Shown: one piece after another, positions 256 to 10,603 of the stretch
How positions within the stretch are numbered: position 1 is the stretch's first letter
Layout of the letters: every line of letters starts with the position of its first letter
Assembly (NCBI GenBank): GCA_040752415.1
Contig: JBFMGU010000329.1
Span: forward strand, 1 to 10,603
Direction: 5' to 3'
DNA from: Myxococcota bacterium
Lineage (GTDB): Bacteria; Myxococcota; JACRCW01
Length of the DNA stretch: 10,603 bases
The notes under the pieces: generated by a model
What the model was told of the DNA's origin: nothing
Seen by the model: the letters and a program-made list of their open reading frames with translations, nothing else
Databases searched by the model: none
Made by a program: the position numbers and the translations under genes

Positions 256-558
256 TACAGTGATTCCCGTTGAAGTTGTCACGCCGTTTGCCTCCGTCTG
301 GCAGAGGATGCCCCGCTGGTCCGAGGGAAAGCGGCACTTCATGCCGCAGTCCGAAAGGGTGCGGGCACCGCTCCGATTCGTGAAATTGCGAGCGCCCGCA
401 CCCGTGCCACGTCGGGGGACGTGCCGGCCTGTCCACGAGAGCGAACGCTGCCGGCACTTTCGGACTGCGGCATGAAGTGCCGCTTTCCCTCGGACAACAC
501 GGCACCCTCTGCCAGACGCAGGCGAAGCGGCATGACAACTTCAACGGAAACCACTGTA
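256..558. repeat. Long inverted repeat (REPIN/MITE-like palindromic element), arms 256..357 and 457..558
   Basis: 319..357 (gtccgagggaaagcggcacttcatgccgcagtccgaaag) is the perfect reverse complement of 457..495. Imperfect complementarity extends outward to tacagtg (256) / cactgta (558). The spacer holds two further hairpins (gggtgcgggc...gcccgcaccc; gtgccggc...gccggcac). A degenerate extra copy of the core palindrome lies at ~171..210. Confidence 0.85.
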
Positions 559-1548
559 CACGCCCAGCTTCTCCCGGAGCGCGGCGGCGCCCAATCCCGG
601 TGAGCCGCGTCCCTCCGCCTCCTTCACCAACGCAACAATCGCCGCGTTCACCGTGGCTCGGGTCCCCACCTTTTCCGCCAAGCGCACCACCTCGCCATTG
701 AGCGCGTCGATCTCCGTCTTGCGCCCCCGCGCGAGATCGTCCCACATCGACGAGCGCGCCTGCGGATCCACGGTCAACATGGGCCGCGCGACGAGGGAGA
801 ACACCGCGTCCGGCAGCGTGAGCACCCAAGGAACCAGGCGCGGCGGCAGCGGCACGTCGAGACGGGGTTGGATCCCGGCAGCGGACACGGCGTCCAGGCC
901 CTCCCGCACGCACGCGGCCATGACGCGCCGGTAGTCGCGCTGCGAGAGCATCTCCTTGATGGGGATGTTGGCCAGCGCATTCACCGGGTTGTTGAGATTC
1001 ACCAACAGCTTGCCCCACAGCACGCCGCGCATGTCGTCGTGGGCTTCAATCTCGAGGCCCGCGTGGGACAGCGCGCGCACCAGCGGCATCACCGCTTCCA
1101 CCCGCTCGACGGCAAGCCGGCCCGAGGTGCCCTGGTGGAAATGCGCACCCGCGCGTCGCAGCACGTTGAAGGGGACCATGCCGGCCAGCACCCGTTGCTG
1201 GGGCAGCGCGGCCCGCAGCAGCTCCGGGTTGTTCACGCCGTTCTGGAAGCTGACCACCAGCGCGTCTCGTCGGAGCACGCCGGCCAGCGCCGCACCCGCG
1301 CTCGCCGTGTCACCACCCTTCACCGTCACCAGCACCACGTCACAATCCGCCAGCGCGGTGGGCGCAGTGGCCACTTCCAGGCGCAATGTCTGGTCAAAGC
1401 CGCGGTAGTCGGTGAGGTGCATTCCGTGCTGCGCCACCTCGTCGGCGAGCGACTGTCGTCCCACCAGCACCACCGGCACGCCACTGTGCTGCAGGCGACC
1501 GCCCAGGTAGCAACCGATGGCGCCGGCGCCCATGATTCCCACTTTCAT
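541..1548 (-). CDS. panE: 2-dehydropantoate 2-reductase (ketopantoate reductase, PanE/ApbA family), 335 aa
   Basis: N-terminal Rossmann motif MKVGIMGAGAIG; family motifs VTVK, FQNGV, WGKLLVNLNN (catalytic Lys) and SSMWDDLARGRKTEIDALNG (catalytic Glu). Start trimmed to ATG 1548, which overlaps the upstream stop (ATGA). Confidence 0.9.
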   Translation of the reverse strand: MKVGIMGAGAIGCYLGGRLQHSGVPVVLVGRQSLADEVAQHGMHLTDYRGFDQTLRLEVATAPTALADCDVVLVTVKGGDTASAGAALAGVLRRDALVVSFQNGVNNPELLRAALPQQRVLAGMVPFNVLRRAGAHFHQGTSGRLAVERVEAVMPLVRALSHAGLEIEAHDDMRGVLWGKLLVNLNNPVNALANIPIKEMLSQRDYRRVMAACVREGLDAVSAAGIQPRLDVPLPPRLVPWVLTLPDAVFSLVARPMLTVDPQARSSMWDDLARGRKTEIDALNGEVVRLAEKVGTRATVNAAIVALVKEAEGRGSPGLGAAALREKLGVYSGFR

Positions 1549-2534
1549 CGTCGAGAACCCTCCACCAGCGCGTCCGCAATCCGCTCCGCAATGGGGAAAC
1601 CCAGGTCCCGTTGCAGCCAGCCCCATTCCCCCGCGGGATTGACCTCCAGGAACACGTGACGACCTTCCGGGTCCACAATGAAGTCCAACGCCGCGGACAC
1701 CAGGCCCAGTCGCCGCATCAGGGCCAGCACGCGCTCCGTCTCGTCGTCAGGCAGCGTGTAGGGTGTCCAATCAATGCCTTCCCCGGGCTGGGTGAGCCGC
1801 CAGTCCACGCGACCGCGCCGGGACCCGCGCGTGTCGATGGCACCGGTGAACACCTCGCTCCCCACGACGACAACGCGCAGCTCACAGCGCTTCCCGACGG
1901 TGGCCTGGAAGATCTGCGGCGCGTAGCGCACGTCGTCGATGGCAGCGAGATCCGCCTCGGTGACCTCGGTGGTATAGAAGAATTCGCTCGTGCCCTGCAT
2001 GCTGACGGTGAGCACGCCCAGCAGTTTCGTGACCATGCGCCCGCCCAGCTCGGCGTGGAAGGCGCGGACCTCGTCGGGGTTGTTGGTGACGAGCGTGGGT
2101 GGAAGGGTGAAGCCCAGCTCCTGCGCCACGCGCAGCTGCAGCAGCTTGGATTCCGCGCGGGTGTTGGCCTGCAGCGTGTTCACCCAGAACGCGCCATCCA
2201 TCAACGACAGCGCATCCACCAGCGCGGTGCGTGATTCCCGACGACAATGCTGCACGTAGCGCGGGTCCATCGTCTCCGGCATGGCGCCGGGCCAGACGCG
2301 ACGGTTCCACACCGCGGGCACCTCCCGTAACGCGACGGCCCCGCGCGGCGTCCTGAGCACCATCTCCTCCCGACCCGAGCGGAACGAGACGCTGAGCGCG
2401 AGCTCGACGGGAAAACGGTCCGTGTCCACGCGCAACGCCGGCACCCCGCGGGAGACCAGCGCCTGCTCGACGAGGTCGATGGTGTAGTAGTCGCCGCTGT
2501 GGGTCAGCAGCAGGATGGGAGCGGACGTGGTCAC
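1545..2534 (-). CDS. mvdC: Microviridin-type ATP-grasp peptide maturase, MdnB/MvdC (macrolactam ligase)-like, 329 aa
   Basis: ILLLTHSGDYYTIDLV, DTDRFP, VWNRRVW, AESKLLQLRVA-GF-LPPTLVTNNP, MVTKLL, ELRVVVVG, VDWR, FLEVNPAGEWGWLQRDLGFPIA. The THSGD start and GEWG end recall MdnB/MvdC rather than MdnC/MvdD (TFSxD..., GEFFW). Lies next to a PFFARFL precursor. GTG start. Confidence 0.88.
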   Translation of the reverse strand: MTTSAPILLLTHSGDYYTIDLVEQALVSRGVPALRVDTDRFPVELALSVSFRSGREEMVLRTPRGAVALREVPAVWNRRVWPGAMPETMDPRYVQHCRRESRTALVDALSLMDGAFWVNTLQANTRAESKLLQLRVAQELGFTLPPTLVTNNPDEVRAFHAELGGRMVTKLLGVLTVSMQGTSEFFYTTEVTEADLAAIDDVRYAPQIFQATVGKRCELRVVVVGSEVFTGAIDTRGSRRGRVDWRLTQPGEGIDWTPYTLPDDETERVLALMRRLGLVSAALDFIVDPEGRHVFLEVNPAGEWGWLQRDLGFPIAERIADALVEGSRR

Positions 2535-2590: not shown

Positions 2591-4330
2591 TCAGCCCGGT
2601 CCGCCGCCGTCCTCGTTGTCGGAGGGATACTTCTCGGTGAACAGGTTGCCGCCGCGACCGGGGCCGCCCGCGCCGTCCTCGTTGTCGGACGGGAACTTCA
2701 TGGTGACCATCATGCCACCGCCGTCGCCACCGCCGTCCTCGTTGTCGGAGGGATACTTCGCGGTGGTCACCTCACCGACACCGCCGCCGGCATCCTCGTT
2801 GTCGGAGGGATAACGCTCCGTGACGATGTCGCCGATGGTGCCGCCACCAGCGTCCTCGCCGTCGGAGGGAGCCTTCATGGTGACCATCATGCCACCACCG
2901 TCGCCGGCGTCCTCGTTGTCGGACGGGTAACGCTCGGTCACGGCCCCGCCGCCACCGACGCCACCCGCGCCACCGCCGCCACCCGCGTCCTCGTTGTCGG
3001 AGGGATAACGCTCCGTGACGATGTCACCGATGGTGCCGCCACCACCGTCCTCGTTGTCGGATGGCGCCTTCATGGTGACCATCACGCCACCGCCGTCACC
3101 CGCGTCCTCGTTGTCGGAGGGATAGCGCTCGGTGACCGCTCCGCCGCCCATGCGCGGCACCGGCTCGCCGCCACCGTCCTCGTTGTCGGAGGGGAACTTG
3201 CGGGTCATCACCACTCCGCCCCCGTCGCCGCCGCCGTCCTCGTTGTCGGAGGGGGCCTTCATGGTGACCATCACGCCACCGCCACCCTCACCCGCGCCGC
3301 CATCCTCGTTGTCGGAGGGGAACTTGCGGGTCATCACCACGCCGCCACCGCCGTTGTCGGCACCGCCGTCCTCGGCGTCGGAGGGGAACTTCTTGGTGAC
3401 CGCGCCCACGTTCTGACCGGTCTCACCCACGGGCCCGTCCTCGTTGTCGGAGGGGTACTTCAGCGTGACCGCCCCGACGCCACCCTCGGCGCCGTCCTCG
3501 TTGTCGGAGGGCGCCTTCATGGTGACCATCATGCCGCCGCCCTCGCCGGGGCGCTTGCTGCCGCCGCCATCCTCGTTGTCGGACGGGTACTTCATGGTCA
3601 CCATGCGACCCACCTCGCCGCGCGCAACCTGGCCACGGTTCTGTCCCTCGAGGAAGCGCGCGAAGAACGGCTTCACCGTGTTCTCGTCGCCACCGAGCTG
3701 CTGCAGGGTCAGCTTCTCCGCGCCCTTGGGGTTGGCCGCGGTGTGGATCTGCTGCGCCGCGGTGAACGCCTTGGAGAACTCCTGCTGCGCCTGCGCGCCC
3801 TCGGGGCTGCCCTTCAGCTTCTGCTGCGCGACGGCCAGCGTCTGGTTCGCCACGTTCTGCATGAGCTGGGTGCGGTCGGTGAGCAGGCGTTCCACCACCT
3901 GGGCCCGCGGGTGCTCCGGCGCGTGCATCTGGAACGCCTTGCTGGTCTTGCGCAGCGCATCCAGCACGGCGGTCTGCGACTCCAGCGTGTGATCCGCGGC
4001 CTTCAACGCCGTGATCAGCTCCTTCTCGATGGCGCGCACCTCACGCGGCACGCTCTGCACCGCACCGGCCTTCTGCGCCGCCACGCGCGCGCCCACCGCG
4101 CCCGTCCCACCTTCCCGTCGCGCGGTCTGCTGCGGCGCCTTGGGGGTCTCCTTGCGACCCGCGGGAGCCTTCTTCTCGAACGCGTCCGACTTCTTCGCCG
4201 AGGCCTTGGCCTGCTGCGCCTTGCTGGTCTGCTTGGCGGGGGCCTTGGCGGTGCTCTTCTGGACCGTCGACTCCGACGGACGCTTGCTGCCCGCGCTCTG
4301 CTTGGTGGAATTGCGGCGGATGGAAGTCAT
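2591..4330 (-). CDS. mdnA: Giant multi-core microviridin/marinostatin-family graspetide precursor, 579 aa, 16 cores
   Basis: PFFARFL at aa 221-227 (nt 3650..3670), followed by 16 TxK/R-Y/F/A-PSD-x-ED units separated by Gly-rich linkers. GGAG Shine-Dalgarno 6 nt before ATG 4330. Adjacent ATP-grasp ligase. Confidence 0.92.
   Translation of the reverse strand: MTSIRRNSTKQSAGSKRPSESTVQKSTAKAPAKQTSKAQQAKASAKKSDAFEKKAPAGRKETPKAPQQTARREGGTGAVGARVAAQKAGAVQSVPREVRAIEKELITALKAADHTLESQTAVLDALRKTSKAFQMHAPEHPRAQVVERLLTDRTQLMQNVANQTLAVAQQKLKGSPEGAQAQQEFSKAFTAAQQIHTAANPKGAEKLTLQQLGGDENTVKPFFARFLEGQNRGQVARGEVGRMVTMKYPSDNEDGGGSKRPGEGGGMMVTMKAPSDNEDGAEGGVGAVTLKYPSDNEDGPVGETGQNVGAVTKKFPSDAEDGGADNGGGGVVMTRKFPSDNEDGGAGEGGGGVMVTMKAPSDNEDGGGDGGGVVMTRKFPSDNEDGGGEPVPRMGGGAVTERYPSDNEDAGDGGGVMVTMKAPSDNEDGGGGTIGDIVTERYPSDNEDAGGGGGAGGVGGGGAVTERYPSDNEDAGDGGGMMVTMKAPSDGEDAGGGTIGDIVTERYPSDNEDAGGGVGEVTTAKYPSDNEDGGGDGGGMMVTMKFPSDNEDGAGGPGRGGNLFTEKYPSDNEDGGGPG
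2609..3598 (-). repeat. In-frame tandem array of 16 core-peptide coding repeats
   Basis: (g/a)tcctcgttgtcgga-type unit (SDNED codons) recurs every ~57-78 bp, always in frame. First core 3569..3598, last core 2609..2638. Confidence 0.93.
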
Positions 4331-4468
4331 GTCAGGCTCCGGGTCTTGGGGACGTCGTGGAAGTCCTGCGTACCCGCATGCGCGCGGGTCGGAACAGGCC
4401 TTTGCGTAGCCTCGGAAACCGCGGGAAGCAATGGCCCCGAGCTGGACGCGCCGCTACCATGACACCCT

Positions 4469-4831
4469 GTGGCTTCCCCCAAGCGTCAGCGCGTCCTCGC
4501 CATCATCGCCACCGACCGCACCTTCGAGCGCGCGGAATATCGCGGTCGCGAGGTGTGGCAGGGGCGCTGCCTGCACTGCAACGCGTATCTCCTCGTCGAG
4601 CTGAGCGGGGAGGCCATCAGCCGCGCCACCATTGAGCACATCATCCCGCGCGTGCACGGCGGCACCGACGCGCCGGAGAACCTGGGCCTGGCCTGCGCGC
4701 GCTGCAACCAGGGCAAGGGGATGCGGCATGACCGCAACTTCAAGCGCGACCCGCGCGTCCAGGAGATGGTGGAGCGGCTGCTGCAACGTCGTCGTGAGCG
4801 CTGGCGCGACCCGGAGGAGGTGACGTCCTGA
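4469..4831 (+). CDS. HNH endonuclease family protein, 120 aa
   Basis: CLHC...ATIEHIIPRVHGGTDAPENLGLACARCNQGKG: CxxC zinc ligands flanking an H-N-N HNH motif. Confidence 0.88.
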   Translation: MASPKRQRVLAIIATDRTFERAEYRGREVWQGRCLHCNAYLLVELSGEAISRATIEHIIPRVHGGTDAPENLGLACARCNQGKGMRHDRNFKRDPRVQEMVERLLQRRRERWRDPEEVTS

Positions 4832-5412: not shown

Positions 5413-5667
5413 ATGACGGGGATCACCCTGCTGGGCCTGGTGGCCGGCACGCTGACGACGGTGGCATTCATCCCGCAGGTGCTCCACGTCTACCGGACGC
5501 GCAGCACGCGGGACATCTCGCTGGGCATGTTCGCCATCTTCAGCACCGGCGTGCTGCTCTGGCTCATCTACGGCGTCAGCATCCATGACGTGCCGGTGGT
5601 GGTGGCCAATGCCATCACGCTGGTGTTGGCGCTGATCATCCTGGCGTTCAAGCTCAAGTACGGCTGA
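5413..5667 (+). CDS. SemiSWEET (PQ-loop/MtN3) sugar transporter, 84 aa
   Basis: Three hydrophobic helices with LTTVAFIPQV (PQ motif), TRSTRDISLGM, LWLIYG and VVVANAI signatures. Start trimmed to ATG 5413. Confidence 0.9.
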   Translation: MTGITLLGLVAGTLTTVAFIPQVLHVYRTRSTRDISLGMFAIFSTGVLLWLIYGVSIHDVPVVVANAITLVLALIILAFKLKYG

Positions 5668-8600
5668 CAACGGCATCCGCGCCCAGCGCCTTCTCCAGCA
5701 CGCGCAGCGCGGTCCGCACCGCGTCGCTCTTGTCCGCCACCGAGGGCGCGCCCCCCTCGCCGGGAGCCCGCGCGCGGGTGATGCGCTTGCGCACCGCGGC
5801 CTTGAGGCGCTTCTCGTCGTCGCGGCGGCCTTCCTCGGCGGCCTGCCGGGCCAACATCAGCTCCCCGTGTCCCTCCTGCACATCCAGCACGGCCAGGCCC
5901 ATCTTGTCGTCGACGTCGGTGAGCTGGCGCCGGGCCGCGTCCCAGGCGGCGCGTGCCTCGTCGTGCTTGCCCAGCAGCGCTTCCACCGCGCCGAACGCCG
6001 TGAGGAACAACCCCTCGAAGCGACGGTCGCCCACCTGGCGCAGCGTGGTGACGGCCTTCTTGATGCGGTGGCGCGCGTCCTCCAGCTGGCCCTGTTCCAG
6101 GTGCAACGTGGCCAGGAAGCCCAGCGCCACCGCCTCGGTGCGACGATCCTGTGCCTCGCGCGCCAACAGGATCGCGCGGTGCAGGCGTTCCTCGGCGTCG
6201 TCGAGCTTGCCCATCTCCTGCTCCAGCAGGGCCAGGTTGCCGAGCTGGATGGCCTCGGTACGCAGGTCGCCCACGCCGCGCAGGATCTCAAGGGCCAGCT
6301 CGAAGTGGGAGCGCGCCTCGTCGAGCCTTCCCTGCGAGCGGTGCAGGTTGCCCAGGTTGCCCACCACCAGGCCCACGTAGCGCTCGTCGTTGACGTTGCG
6401 CAGGTGCTCCAGGGCTTCGGTGTAGCAGCGTTGCGCGTCGTCGATGCGCCCCTGCTGTCGACGGATGATGCCCAGGTCACCCTGGAGGCGACCCATGAGC
6501 CGCGCGTCGCCCGCGCCCCGCGCCCACTCCAGCGCCCTGGTGTCATCCGCCTCCGCCTCGGGGAGACGTCCCTGCATGAGCAGCGCCCAGCCGCGCACCT
6601 TGAGGACGCTGGCGAGCATGGCGGGCTCCACGTTGGCCTGCTTGGCCGCCGTCAGCGCCTGGGTGAGGAGGGAGAGATAGAGCGCAAAGGGTCCACGCGT
6701 GGCCAGCACGGAATCCACCGCCAGCATGACGCGCAGCGCCTGGGTCACATTCTCCGTCGTCACGGAGGCGGCCAGCGCGCGGTGGAAGACGGCGAGCAGG
6801 TTCTCCATCTCCAGGGAGAGCCTCTGCCGCACCTCGGCGCCCTGCGGGCCGTCGGCCTGGTCGGCGTATTGGCTGCCCAGCTTCAGGTAGTAGGCCGCGT
6901 GCCGGGCCCACACGCCGTCCTTCTGCCCCGACTGCACAAGCTTCTCCGCGGCGTACTCGCGGATGGACTCGTACATGAAGAAGCGCACCTCGCCGTCGTC
7001 GGTGTCGTTGGCGCGCAGCAGGGATTTCTCCCGCAGGGCTTGCATGACGTCGAGGACCCAGGGTGCGTCGGGCACGTCGGCGAGGTCCACCACGGCTTCG
7101 GCGGCCTCCAGGTCGAAGCCACCGCGGAACACCGAGCAGCTCGCCAGCGCGCGCTGTTCCCACGGCTGCAGCATGTTCCACGACCAATCAATGGCCCCGC
7201 GCAGCGTCTTCTGGCGACTGTTGGCATTGCGCGCACCGCCGGTGAGCAGGTCGAACCGACGGGGCAGCCGCTCCAGCAGCTTGGCCGCGCTCATCACGCC
7301 CATGCGCGCCGCCGCCAGCTCGATGGCCAGGGGCAGCCCGTCCAGCTGCCGCACCATCTCCGCCACAACGGGCGCATCCTGCGGCGTGAGCTCGTACTGC
7401 GGACGCACCAGCTTGGCGCGCTCCACGAACAACTGCACCGCCTCGCTGCCTTCCGCGTCTTCTCCCTCGCCGGGAACGGCCAGCGGGGCCAGCTCCAGCG
7501 GTCGCTCGCCCGGGACGCGCAGCAATTCGCGCGAGCTGACCAGGAAGCGCGCTTCCGGCGCAATGGTCATCCAGCGCTTCACCGTCGTGGCGGCGTGCTG
7601 CACCACCTGCTCGAAGTTGTCCAGGATGAGCAACACCTTGCCGCGCGCGGCCAGCGCGTGACCGAGCTGCAGCACGTTGTCGGCGCTGGTCTTGCCCAAC
7701 GTGAGCGGGACCTGCAGCGTCTGCGCCACGGCCGCGGTGATGTCGTCGACGGAGGTGGCCTCGCTGAGGTCGCAGAACCACACGCCGCCGGAGAGCGGGG
7801 CGCCGTAGAGGCTGAGGTGCTTGTGGCCAAAGCGGATGGCCATGCGGGTCTTCCCCGTCCCGGCCGGGCCCAGCAACGTGACGAGCCGCTCCCCCGCCTC
7901 CATGAGCTGGTGCAGCGCCTCCAGGTCCAGCGCGCGCCCCACGAAGCCTGGCGTCTCCGTCGGAAGATTGGTCTTGCGCTCCGGCGCGCTGTAGCCGCTC
8001 TCGGAGAGCTGGGTGATGGCGGAGAACACGCCTGGCTCGTCGACGGTGGGCTCGTCGACGGGCGGCGGCGGAAGCTCACGCGGCTGTTCCTGCGGCACCA
8101 CCGGACCACGCACGCTGACACCCGGTCCACTGTTGCCCTCGACGGGCGGGGGGCGCACCGGCATGCGTTCCCGGGAGGTGGGGCGGTTCTCCGGACGTCG
8201 CCGGGCCAGCAGCTCCTCGACGGCCGGCATGGCGGAGGCCGCGGCGGGCAACTGCTTCATGAGCTGCGCCTCCTGGGCCTGCACGTCGGTGAAGAGGGAG
8301 CGCACGAACCCGCCCACGCGCGCGGGTGAGTGCATGATTCCCGCCTCCGCCATGAACGACTCCAACGCCGCCACCAGCTCCGCACAGGAGGCGAAACGCT
8401 TCTCCTTCTCCCGCGCCAACGCAGTCATCACAACGTCTTCCAGCGCGCGCGGATAGTCCGGCTTCAACGACGTGGGCCGCGGGATCTCCCCTTCGATCAC
8501 CGCGTGCAGGGCGAGGATCTCCGTCTCCCGCTTGAACAGGCGGTGCAGGGTGGTGATCTCGTAGAGGATGATGCCGAGCGCGAACTGGTCGGTGCGGTGG

Positions 8601-9205
8601 TCGATCTCGTAGCCCGCCGCCTGCTCCGGCGACATGTAGCTGACCTTGCCCTTGAGCACGCCGCTGCGCGTCTCGATGGCCTGGCCCCGCGCCTTGGCGA
8701 TGCCGAAGTCCACCACCTTCGTGGTGCCCTCGTAGGTGACAATGACGTTCTGCGGGGAGATGTCGCGGTGGATGATGCCCAGCGGCTCACCCTGGAGGTT
8801 GGTCTTGGTATGCGCGTAGTGCAGACCGCTGGCGGCGTCGACGACCATCTGCAGCGCATGCGCCAGGGGGAACGGCTCCCCGCGCTTGTTGCAGCGGTTC
8901 ATGATGCGCGCAATGTCCTGCCCCTGCAGGTACTCCATGACGAGGAAGAACTGGCCGTGGTCCTCCCCCACGTCGAGCACGGCCACCACGTTGGCGTGGC
9001 GCAGGTCCGCGGCCACCCGGGCCTCCGCGAACAGCATGCGGACGAAGTCCTCGTTCTCGGCGAGGTGCGGATGGATGCGCTTGACCACCACCAGCTTCTC
9101 GAACCCGTCGAGACCCACCTGGCGCGCCAGGAACACCTCGGCCATGCCGCCTTGGGCCAGGCGACGCAACACGGTGTACTTGCCCGCCAGGGTGGTGCCT
9201 TCCAT
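5654..9205 (-). CDS. Ser/Thr protein kinase - STAND (NB-ARC-like) ATPase - TPR repeat protein, 1183 aa
   Basis: Kinase motifs LAQGGMAEV, VVVKRI, HRDISPQN, DFGIAK, YMSPEQ, TDQFALG. Pro-rich linker. Walker A GPAGTGKT, Walker B LLILDNFEQ and GLPLAIELAA (GLPL motif). C-terminal ~40-aa TPR-like repeats (GDLGIIRRQQGR, GNLGNLHRSQGR, GNLALLEQEMGK). 3' end overlaps the SemiSWEET gene by 14 bp. Confidence 0.92.
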   Translation of the reverse strand: MEGTTLAGKYTVLRRLAQGGMAEVFLARQVGLDGFEKLVVVKRIHPHLAENEDFVRMLFAEARVAADLRHANVVAVLDVGEDHGQFFLVMEYLQGQDIARIMNRCNKRGEPFPLAHALQMVVDAASGLHYAHTKTNLQGEPLGIIHRDISPQNVIVTYEGTTKVVDFGIAKARGQAIETRSGVLKGKVSYMSPEQAAGYEIDHRTDQFALGIILYEITTLHRLFKRETEILALHAVIEGEIPRPTSLKPDYPRALEDVVMTALAREKEKRFASCAELVAALESFMAEAGIMHSPARVGGFVRSLFTDVQAQEAQLMKQLPAAASAMPAVEELLARRRPENRPTSRERMPVRPPPVEGNSGPGVSVRGPVVPQEQPRELPPPPVDEPTVDEPGVFSAITQLSESGYSAPERKTNLPTETPGFVGRALDLEALHQLMEAGERLVTLLGPAGTGKTRMAIRFGHKHLSLYGAPLSGGVWFCDLSEATSVDDITAAVAQTLQVPLTLGKTSADNVLQLGHALAARGKVLLILDNFEQVVQHAATTVKRWMTIAPEARFLVSSRELLRVPGERPLELAPLAVPGEGEDAEGSEAVQLFVERAKLVRPQYELTPQDAPVVAEMVRQLDGLPLAIELAAARMGVMSAAKLLERLPRRFDLLTGGARNANSRQKTLRGAIDWSWNMLQPWEQRALASCSVFRGGFDLEAAEAVVDLADVPDAPWVLDVMQALREKSLLRANDTDDGEVRFFMYESIREYAAEKLVQSGQKDGVWARHAAYYLKLGSQYADQADGPQGAEVRQRLSLEMENLLAVFHRALAASVTTENVTQALRVMLAVDSVLATRGPFALYLSLLTQALTAAKQANVEPAMLASVLKVRGWALLMQGRLPEAEADDTRALEWARGAGDARLMGRLQGDLGIIRRQQGRIDDAQRCYTEALEHLRNVNDERYVGLVVGNLGNLHRSQGRLDEARSHFELALEILRGVGDLRTEAIQLGNLALLEQEMGKLDDAEERLHRAILLAREAQDRRTEAVALGFLATLHLEQGQLEDARHRIKKAVTTLRQVGDRRFEGLFLTAFGAVEALLGKHDEARAAWDAARRQLTDVDDKMGLAVLDVQEGHGELMLARQAAEEGRRDDEKRLKAAVRKRITRARAPGEGGAPSVADKSDAVRTALRVLEKALGADAVVSRT

Positions 9206-9333: not shown

Positions 9334-10518
9334 TCAGACGGTGACGAAGGGGACGCTGGGCGTCTCGTGCAGGCGGGATTCCTGCTGGTAGCTGCGGAAG
9401 TAGTGGAAGATGTAGCCCATGCGCTCGTCGTACTTCGACCAGTCCGAGGCGTCGCTGTGCTGGGTGGACTGCGGGTCCTGGCCAAAGCGACGCGCCTCCG
9501 CGTTCATCTCCGGCACGGCGTTGAAGCTGGTGAGCTCGAAGGGCGCGGCCTTCTGCACGTCCTGCCCCAGCACCAGGGATTGGCCGGGGATGTTGAGGCG
9601 CATCTGGTCGGTGACGTTGTCGTTGTAGCTCATGCCGGGCATGGCGCCCTTCACGAAGCGGTCCGCCACCTGCTGCTCATGCTTGGCGACGAGGAAGTTG
9701 CCCTGGAACATCAGCTCCGCGCGCCGGTTCTCCGCCTCGTAGCCCTTGGCGTCCTTCAGCGTCATGGCCTCGTGGTAGGAGCGGAACGCGTTCTGCAGGT
9801 CCGGCTTCCCCTCGAGCGCGGGCTGCTTCACGAAGTCGTCGATCATCTGCTGACCGCGCGCGGGGTCCTTCCTCCACGACGTGTCATTCTGGAAGGTGTT
9901 GATGAAGCGGCTGAAGTGCGGCGCGATGTCGCCGAAGATGGCCTGGTTGCCCTTGGCCACGGCGTCCGCGGCGTCGTCCTTCTTCCAGTTCTGCACCGGC
10001 TTGGTGACGAAGTTGACGAGGCCACCCACCGGGGAGTCACTGCCGGGCAGCTTGACGTCGACCTCCTTGCGGATGACGCCACCGGCGGTGTTGCTGGCCC
10101 ACTTGCCGAACGTGAGCCAGTTGGCGTTGTCCTTCCCCACCAGGCTGGCCATGCCCTCGCTCAGCTCATGGTAGCCGCGCGTGATGGCGTAGTTGCGCTG
10201 CACCGGGTCCTTCATGTCCGCCACGCGACGCACGTGCGCCTCGTCGAGATACGCGCTCTGGAATCTGGGCTCCGCGCGGGGGCCGCCCACGTCGGTGGCC
10301 AGCCGCTGCTGCAGCATCTGGGCCCGCATGTCATGACGGGACACGGTGCGGGAGTCCTGCTGGCGCTGCGGATCCACGGGAGCGCGTGCGGCGGGCTCGG
10401 TGGTGCGGGCCGCGGGCTGTGAGGTGGTGGTCTGCGCCGGCTGGGCGGGCTTCGCCGTCGACGTGGAGGTGGTGGCCTGGGTTTGAACCGGTCGTGATCC
10501 GCCGCCGTCAACGCGCAT
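9334..10518 (-). CDS. Hypothetical protein, DUF2515-like domain after a low-complexity T/S/P/Q/A N-terminus, 394 aa
   Basis: Long ORF with strong GC3 codon pattern. Motifs RNYAITRGY, ANWLTFGKWAS, GNQAIFGDI, HEQ and DWSKYDERMGYI resemble DUF2515-type families (from memory, unverified). Start chosen at ATG 10518 (MRVDGGG). Confidence 0.7.
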   Translation of the reverse strand: MRVDGGGSRPVQTQATTSTSTAKPAQPAQTTTSQPAARTTEPAARAPVDPQRQQDSRTVSRHDMRAQMLQQRLATDVGGPRAEPRFQSAYLDEAHVRRVADMKDPVQRNYAITRGYHELSEGMASLVGKDNANWLTFGKWASNTAGGVIRKEVDVKLPGSDSPVGGLVNFVTKPVQNWKKDDAADAVAKGNQAIFGDIAPHFSRFINTFQNDTSWRKDPARGQQMIDDFVKQPALEGKPDLQNAFRSYHEAMTLKDAKGYEAENRRAELMFQGNFLVAKHEQQVADRFVKGAMPGMSYNDNVTDQMRLNIPGQSLVLGQDVQKAAPFELTSFNAVPEMNAEARRFGQDPQSTQHSDASDWSKYDERMGYIFHYFRSYQQESRLHETPSVPFVTV

Positions 10519-10603
10519 GGGTAGCCCCAGAAGCAGGTGCGTCAGTATCGACTCTGGTTCCGGGCCCGTCCACATCCGTCGGACAACTGACGGGTGCGCC
10601 CAT

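Follow-up and report, generated by a model that had tools for sequence, protein, structure and literature searches.

A predicted helical domain of an unnamed family ahead of the PFFARFL leader motif in a 16-core microviridin-type precursor from a Myxococcota bacterium

The precursor described here combines, in a single polypeptide, an N-terminal domain of an unnamed family with the PFFARFL leader motif and the 16 core peptides of a microviridin-type graspetide, and it is this combination that constitutes the new element. It is encoded on contig JBFMGU010000329.1 of a Myxococcota bacterium (assembly GCA_040752415.1), and the whole 10.6-kb contig (10,603 nucleotides, 69% GC) was analysed and is called the window. 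The open reading frame of 579 aa (P0001; 2591-4330, minus strand; GC content at third codon positions, GC3, 0.89) matches PF12559 (E 7.3e-55) and scores 238.8 bits against NF033738, for which the cut-off is 26. From the N-terminus onwards it consists of a basic tail, the helical domain, PFFARFL and the cores; the 220 residues ahead of the motif, encoded by 3671-4330 of the minus strand without a stop codon, are a translated part of this one multi-core microviridin/marinostatin-type precursor. We hold it as very probable that this extension is a real and conserved part of the protein. For the helical domain that it contains we propose the role of a maturation handle, to which we give a probability of about 0.5.

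The original prediction, drawn from the DNA alone, had reported an extension of about 220 residues with a basic low-complexity beginning that includes SDAFEK, an Ala/Gln/Leu-rich and probably helical continuation, and PFFARFL at aa 221; the reading frame, the composition and the position of the motif are as it described them, SDAFEK lying at aa 48-53. The basic tail (aa 1-75; 4106-4330, minus strand; GC3 0.83-0.97) is rich in Lys, Ala, Ser, Thr and Gln, with a pI of 11.2 and a net charge of +14. Its low-complexity composition extends to about aa 90, the first 90 residues comprising 19 Ala, 14 Lys, 10 Ser, 8 Thr, 8 Gln and 7 Arg (pI 11.4, net charge +16), and aa 91-220 hold 20 Ala, 16 Gln and 13 Leu. 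The helical domain, called domain B (aa 96-200; 3731-4045, minus strand), is followed by a linker (aa 201-220; 3671-3730, minus strand) predicted to contain an NPK turn and a short helix. The PFFARFL motif itself (aa 221-227; 3650-3670, minus strand) is recognised by its letters and by the PF12559 and NF033738 matches, and its ligase-activating role is taken from the cited passages of PMC8939145 and PMC13039773. The core region (aa 245-579; 2594-3598, minus strand; net charge about -43) contains 16 copies of the motif TxKxPSDx(D/E)(D/E), here in the form T.[KR].PSD.ED and separated by Gly-rich linkers, with Lys at the third position in 12 copies and Arg in four. The four Arg cores, at aa 400, 439, 465 and 504, read TERYPSDNED, the Arg replacing the lactam-forming Lys, and could be limited to two lactones in a marinostatin-like manner. 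In most linkers, read by eye, a GG stands 2-4 residues ahead of the next core.

Translation of the N-terminal extension

Three observations indicate that residues 1-220 are translated and kept under purifying selection. GC3 is 0.94 over the extension (0.83-1.00 in each 30-codon window) versus 0.66 in the 150 nt upstream of the distal ATG, the other genes of the window having values of 0.83-0.92. A GGAG ribosome-binding-like motif, read from the sequence (4337-4340, minus strand), stands 6 nt before this ATG (4330-4328); in the homologues from two related genomes, G034 and G150, GGAGAGCCC(C) immediately precedes the ATG. Finally, the extension is conserved at the protein level, and it is the conserved columns, together with GC3, that argue for purifying selection. 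By alignment, the conservation is uneven: the tail up to about aa 90 is variable between lineages and aa 96-200 are conserved. The loss of the extension to a start close to PFFARFL, which the original prediction had considered, is thus opposed by the codon composition, the upstream conservation and the GGAG motif, and its lack of conservation, also considered there, by the 17 profile matches presented below, 11 of which carry a PFFARFL-type motif and cores.

An in-frame GTG does occur within the linker, two codons before PFFARFL (V219; 3676-3674, minus strand). On inspection of the sequence no clear Shine-Dalgarno motif was seen ahead of it, the corresponding residue is V, R, Q or E among the relatives, and in 11 relatives the positions immediately before PFF show no conservation of a start codon. 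An additional internal start may nevertheless be used besides the distal ATG.

The length of the extension sets the precursor apart within its phylum, where 31 of 401 genomes hold a PF12559 match. At eight loci a canonical precursor begins with an ATG, and there the motif is preceded by 9-16 residues, versus 220 here, which agrees with the earlier claim that the extension far exceeds ordinary leaders. Precursors of this canonical kind carry 1-3 PSD motifs, apart from one with at least five; taken over the loci with a short leader or with non-coding DNA upstream, 24 have 1-3. The full-length forms with the N-terminal domain have 4-16 cores. Among the loci fetched, long coding-like extensions are those of the window, G034 and G150. 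Because canonical precursors do without it, the extension is unnecessary for basic recognition by the ligases. Two further loci deserve mention as observations in their own right. In G152 (L034:1501-1929, minus strand) a long coding-like N-terminal part ends with PFFARFLEHQKR and a stop codon, with no cores in any frame, and is probably a decayed precursor. In G072 (L007:1441-2031, minus strand) a 197-aa precursor has a Nif11 domain (E 1.1e-14) before PFFARFL and two cores, a hybrid of two leader types, from which we conclude that the N-terminal slot is modular.

Structure of the helical domain

The AlphaFold2 model leaves aa 1-75 disordered (per-residue confidence, pLDDT, below 50) and predicts four helices, at aa 96-111, 116-136, 141-174 and 179-199, with a pLDDT of about 95, so that the helical character foreseen for this segment is found in the model. 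From aa 201 on, through the linker and the helix that contains PFFARFL, the block means fall to 48-64. The N-terminal domain of the G034 homologue is modelled with a mean pLDDT of 88. In an alignment of the window protein with 12 relatives, the conserved unit covers aa 96-215; Q119 and R153 are invariant, and A108, L109, S118, L126, A192 and P201 nearly so. The distance from the NP turn to PFF is 21 aa in the window and 23-31 aa, mostly 28-29, in 11 relatives. In eight relatives the place of the window protein's basic tail is taken by an additional helical subdomain, about 100 aa long.

We read domain B as a twofold helical-hairpin repeat that has an NP(K/R)S turn, a reading of the model that is suggested by two things: its halves align with each other (hhalign probability 72%, E 3.3e-5, 47 columns), and P0013 and P0018, two relatives with neither leader motif nor cores, are each matched by the profile at three distinct places, and by eye their sequences appear as tandem copies of a helical-hairpin unit of about 60 aa. 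A homodimer prediction for aa 91-215 scored 0.01 against a mark of 0.42, which bears on self-association neither way.

Relatives and distribution

The family was delimited with a profile of three extensions (window, G034 and G150), PFFARFL being left out, which was compared with 1.84 billion cluster representatives. At E <= 0.001 this profile matches 17 proteins, 10 of them at <= 1e-10 and five at <= 1e-30; none is 579 aa long, and the window protein is apparently outside this library. Eleven of the 17 present the domain, then PFF[AE][RQ]FL, then 1-15 cores, and the clusters with this fusion are only 22-37% identical to the window protein. The other six have neither PFFARFL nor cores; these, together with the triple matches of P0013 and P0018, lead us to regard the module as autonomous. 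Most of the matching clusters are metagenome singletons named 'hypothetical'. The record of P0014 is named 'microviridin/marinostatin family tricyclic proteinase inhibitor [Myxococcota' and is located in G142, of the same phylum as the window. On these sequence comparisons, domain B is a rare unnamed family of metagenome genomes of Myxococcota. A word-indexed protein search with aa 1-225 yielded 4033 candidates, none at E <= 0.01, a blank that belongs to the method, since the profile search found relatives.

Genomic context is known for few members of the family. When 41 related genomes were compared with aa 1-220, G034 was found to hold a 490-aa frame of the same layout (30% identity over aa 95-212, E 6e-7), and a scan of genome contigs for related loci returned only the G034 contig. 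Pattern scans of metagenomes confirmed 0 of 593 candidates with one alignment and 1 of 573 with another, the latter being contig L051. Its protein P0015 is the closest architectural twin of the window protein (35% identity over aa 99-232, E 9e-20): a tail that is likewise basic and of low complexity comes first, then the helical domain, PFFARFL and six cores, and the genes of two ligases follow. The tail of P0015 resembles that of the window protein in composition and differs from it in sequence. The fusion of domain and leader is thus found unbroken in five separate assemblies, those of the window, G034, G150, G142 and L051.

The basic character of the tail is itself not family-wide: over the first 60 aa the net charge amounts to +13 in the window protein, +12 in P0015, +5 in P0016 and between -2 and +3 in the eight other precursor matches. 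For this reason the pairing of the basic N-terminus with the acidic core array, suggested in the original prediction, cannot be the general role of the domain. When the genome was searched with aa 1-220 for other proteins with the same N-terminal pattern, it returned, besides the gene itself, three weak matches (E 0.2-0.9) and no second protein with this pattern.

Several relatives depart from the simple layout. P0005 (841 aa), P0006 (948 aa) and P0014 (603 aa) continue for 261-547 residues beyond the last core, with proline/glutamate repeats of the PEIxPEI type and helical repeats, and in P0011 an insert of about 200 aa separates the leader from the cores. P0017 (204 aa) combines the family's other N-terminal subdomain (profile positions 6-113) with four repeats containing CGDDPCA, lacks PFFARFL, and may represent a different multi-core modified-peptide array borne by the same kind of N-terminal module.

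Proposed role of the helical domain

In the model we propose, PFFARFL would remain the element that activates the ATP-grasp ligases, and the helical domain would act as an accessory leader or handle, occupying the N-terminal slot in which the G072 precursor has its Nif11 domain. The domain would aid the maturation of very long and acidic arrays, in the present case 16 cores with up to about 44 ring closures carried out by two ligases, a maximum that supposes three rings in each of the 12 Lys cores and two in each of the four Arg cores. It would do so either by keeping the substrate soluble, or by offering an extra docking surface to the enzymes or to later processing, or by both routes. In this model the domain may or may not be retained on the final product.

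This proposal is grounded on an analogy with the N-terminal domain of CorA, on a precedent for a second leader, and on the association of the domain with arrays of 4-16 cores. CorA, from which corallotide (a group 15 graspetide of Corallococcus exercitus) is made, is, in the cited passages of PMC13097080, a large myxobacterial precursor with an N-terminal alpha-helical domain and repeated modified motifs; residues 1-86 form the helical domain, which binds CorB, CorC and CorD, and its removal causes the product to precipitate. It offers the best functional analogy for domain B, the comparison being with a published description and the resemblance one of architecture only. CorA differs in belonging to another graspetide group, with a KxxxD isopeptide and hydroxylation motif and other partner enzymes, and the cited passages do not mention PFFARFL; an array of the CorA type was seen in none of the 17 profile matches, as judged from the printed sequences. 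The precedent is that of a trivalent graspetide, the maturation of which was improved by a second leader, according to the cited part of PMC13003496.

Several points weigh against the handle. An N-terminal His6 tag abolished the activity of AMdnC on AMdnA (cited passages of PMC5934393), so N-terminal additions can disturb the function of the leader. The link between domain and core number rests on related, non-independent sequences and has its exceptions, one short-leader locus with at least five PSD motifs and G214, which has another extension and 12 cores. A single ancestral fusion, without functional coupling, may account for the constant spacing to PFFARFL, and, because the domain also occurs without a graspetide array, its primary role may be unrelated to maturation. 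Moreover, no relative with a known function could be detected for the helical domain. Neither aa 1-220 nor the N-terminal domains of the relatives belong to a Pfam or NCBIfam family (the sole Pfam match, DUF5094 over aa 25-124 at 17.3 bits versus a cut-off of 33.2, was dismissed as an effect of low complexity). A sequence profile search of the PDB gave one match only, at E 0.44, which was rejected. Foldseek with the window model against the PDB gave no match at E <= 0.001, the best being 0.07, and its leading matches are helical proteins of generic TPR, 14-3-3 and MIT-like kinds; the best VIA-align match (Z 8.3, rmsd 3.1, 96 aligned residues, the helical domain of Cry5B) lies within helical-bundle noise. 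For the N-terminal domain of G034 the best Foldseek E is 0.067, and designed helical-peptide binders give the highest Z, 8.6, ahead of 14-3-3 at 8.0. The ESM Atlas gave no usable match. On these models, domain B is assignable to no known fold family.

The comparison with the known systems can be extended to class II microviridins and marinostatins, represented by AMdnA of Anabaena sp. PCC 7120 (cited passages of PMC5934393 and PMC13039773). The window precursor shares with them PFFARFL, the TxKxPSDx(D/E)(D/E) repeats, the Gly-rich linkers with GG, ATP-grasp ligases belonging to the MvdC and MvdD types and the PF12559 and NF033738 matches. It differs by the folded domain included in the 220 residues before the motif (canonically about 10-16), by 16 cores in place of the 'up to five' in the class definition of PMC13039773, by ligases that are unlinked in the window assembly, and by the C39 transporter, found neither nearby nor in the genome of the window; in the cited part of the same paper, class II is characterised by several cores in succession, by double-glycine motifs and by a C39 peptidase-transporter that accompanies them.

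A third term of comparison is provided by leader domains derived from proteins. The Nif11 and nitrile-hydratase (NHLP) leader domains are protein-derived, measure 70-100 aa and are reused before different core peptides, and a peptidase-transporter usually accompanies them. The precursor of the window resembles these systems by its N-terminal domain, the equivalent slot being filled by Nif11 in G072. It differs from them in that aa 1-220 match no Pfam family, and neither Nif11 (PF07862) nor NHLP at E <= 0.01, and in that the usual peptidase-transporter was not found in the genome. The literature search, which did not extend to Ahmed et al. 2017 or to supplementary precursor tables, turned up no account of a folded domain lying upstream of PFFARFL.

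Alternative explanations

The helical domain could instead belong to a product that is never cut: an uncut modified protein of 58 kDa in which it would serve as the folded body, or as a targeting or assembly module, displaying 16 cage-like inhibitor units. This possibility, which we regard as a minor one that nonetheless deserves attention, develops the suggestion of the original prediction that the product might be delivered as an intact polyvalent protein. The absence of a transporter and of a protease, on which that suggestion was based, is observed in the cassette of the window and holds for the genes adjoining the precursors in G034 and L051; for the window it is weak evidence, because the window is the entire contig. 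No C39 peptidase (PF03412) was found in the genome of the window, which is 96.8% complete. The autonomy of the helical domain, the relatives P0005, P0006, P0014 and P0011, in which the arrays lie inside larger proteins with further predicted domains, and corallotide, characterised as a full-length modified protein according to the cited part of PMC13097080, all agree with an intact product, and the intact polyvalent product fits the arrays in multidomain proteins of 603-948 aa. The GG found before most cores speaks in the other direction, since it is the cutting motif of class II and III microviridin precursors (cited passages of PMC13039773). In addition, cutting by housekeeping proteases is possible, and the genome of G034 has a C39-type gene elsewhere (that of G142 has a weak one and that of G150 none).

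An export or sorting signal is improbable. According to this explanation, the Ser/Thr/Lys-rich N-terminus, the helical domain or both would direct the precursor to a T3SS-like system, to a non-classical route or to a peptidase-transporter, as Nif11 and NHLP leaders do. A polar, disordered N-terminus, the Nif11 leader domain in the same slot of G072 and two genes of the FHIPEP (FlhA/SctV) family in the genome would be in keeping with it; the latter are on other contigs, are generic and have no linkage to the precursor. The signal is opposed by the composition of aa 1-74, which have a GRAVY of -1.47 and, on inspection, no hydrophobic stretch of the Sec or Tat kind, by the lack of conservation of the tail across the family, and by the absence of its pattern from the other proteins of the genome. 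No secretion marker domain is found in the window protein, no exporter adjoins the gene in any of the contexts examined, and neither a C39 peptidase nor a gene for the T6SS sheath (VipB/TssC) was found in the genome. The export role put forward in the original prediction is thus left unsupported.

We see equally little reason to treat the domain as functionless baggage, in the sense that an unrelated helical-repeat protein was fused long ago and is tolerated because the flexible linker isolates PFFARFL. The module does occur in coreless proteins, the linker is modelled at low confidence, and canonical precursors function without the domain; against this, the fusion is retained in 11 of the 17 clusters despite their divergence from the window protein, its spacing to PFFARFL keeps within a narrow range, and the GC3 and conserved columns point to purifying selection. 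Lastly, a wrongly assigned start, with translation from the GTG at V219 and 218 upstream codons lying outside the precursor, would give a leader MK-PFFARFL matching the short leaders in length, and is very improbable in view of the codon composition of the upstream part, its conservation in other assemblies, the variability of the V219 position, and a GGAG that precedes the distal ATG and has no clear counterpart before the GTG.

Significance

Microviridin-type precursors are usually regarded as short, with a leader of a few tens of residues and one to five cores, and large proteins may be set aside by genome-mining pipelines; in the cited part of PMC8939145, several large proteins with core motifs were excluded for their distance from an ATP-grasp gene or for an incompatible annotation. 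The present precursor and its relatives indicate that the same chemistry is applied to protein-sized substrates, with a conserved folded domain before the leader, as many as 16 cores and, in some of the relatives, additional domains. Should the helical domain aid maturation, it would represent a natural solution for multi-core constructs that are modified incompletely; should it be retained on the product, these precursors would yield protease-inhibitor proteins that are polyvalent and of a hitherto undescribed kind. In both cases an unnamed domain family is defined. A bolder and rather unlikely picture would be that of true 'graspetide proteins' of 320-950 aa, in which the helical-hairpin handle binds a peptide or protein and up to 16 caged inhibitor units stay attached, making an intact polyvalent protease trap, the family of N-terminal modules being reused for other arrays such as the CGDDPCA repeats of P0017.

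Ligase genes and genomic surroundings

Directly downstream of the precursor gene, the window encodes an ATP-grasp ligase of 329 aa (1545-2534, minus strand; PF21068, E 1.8e-31); among the NCBIfam models, MvdC fits it best (365.5 bits, cut-off 425). Elsewhere in the same genome (G000), among unrelated genes on contig C232 (L040:1495-2487, plus strand), lies the gene of another ligase, with MvdD as its best match (394.1 bits, cut-off 475), so that both ligases score under the equivalog cut-offs. The C232 gene is flanked by those of a HAD-type hydrolase and a peptidoglycan-binding-like protein and is unlinked to the precursor; its product is probably the lactone-forming partner of the MvdC-like ligase of the window, lactones being made by enzymes of the MvdD type according to the cited part of PMC12848669. 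In G034 and L051 the precursor, an MvdC-like and an MvdD-like gene follow each other in this order.

TldD/PmbA-type peptidases process some modified peptides. A metallopeptidase pair of this type (L036:2960-5718, plus strand), situated in G034 about 4 kb upstream of the precursor, was considered as the processing protease and rejected: an oxoprolinase gene on the opposite strand separates it from the precursor gene, and the window has no counterpart.

In the window, the longest frame of a PanE/ApbA-like gene (541-1626, minus strand) reaches 82 nt into the 3' end of the ligase gene, and its start is probably an internal Met at about aa 27 (MKVGIMGAG...). Divergent from the precursor, 4469-4831 (plus strand) encodes a 120-aa HNH endonuclease; further on lie a Ser/Thr kinase of 1183 aa that includes an NTPase region of the AAA/NB-ARC type and TPR repeats (5654-9205, minus strand) and a 413-aa open reading frame without a Pfam or NCBIfam match (9334-10575, minus strand), all three seemingly unrelated to the cassette. 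Downstream of the PanE-like gene, positions 1-560 are dense in repeats, with 61-nt direct repeats at 2-62 and 121-181 that are 98% identical, a perfect 39-nt inverted repeat at 319-357 and 457-495, and three further inverted pairs; from its sequence, this cluster looks like an intergenic repeat or a miniature mobile element.

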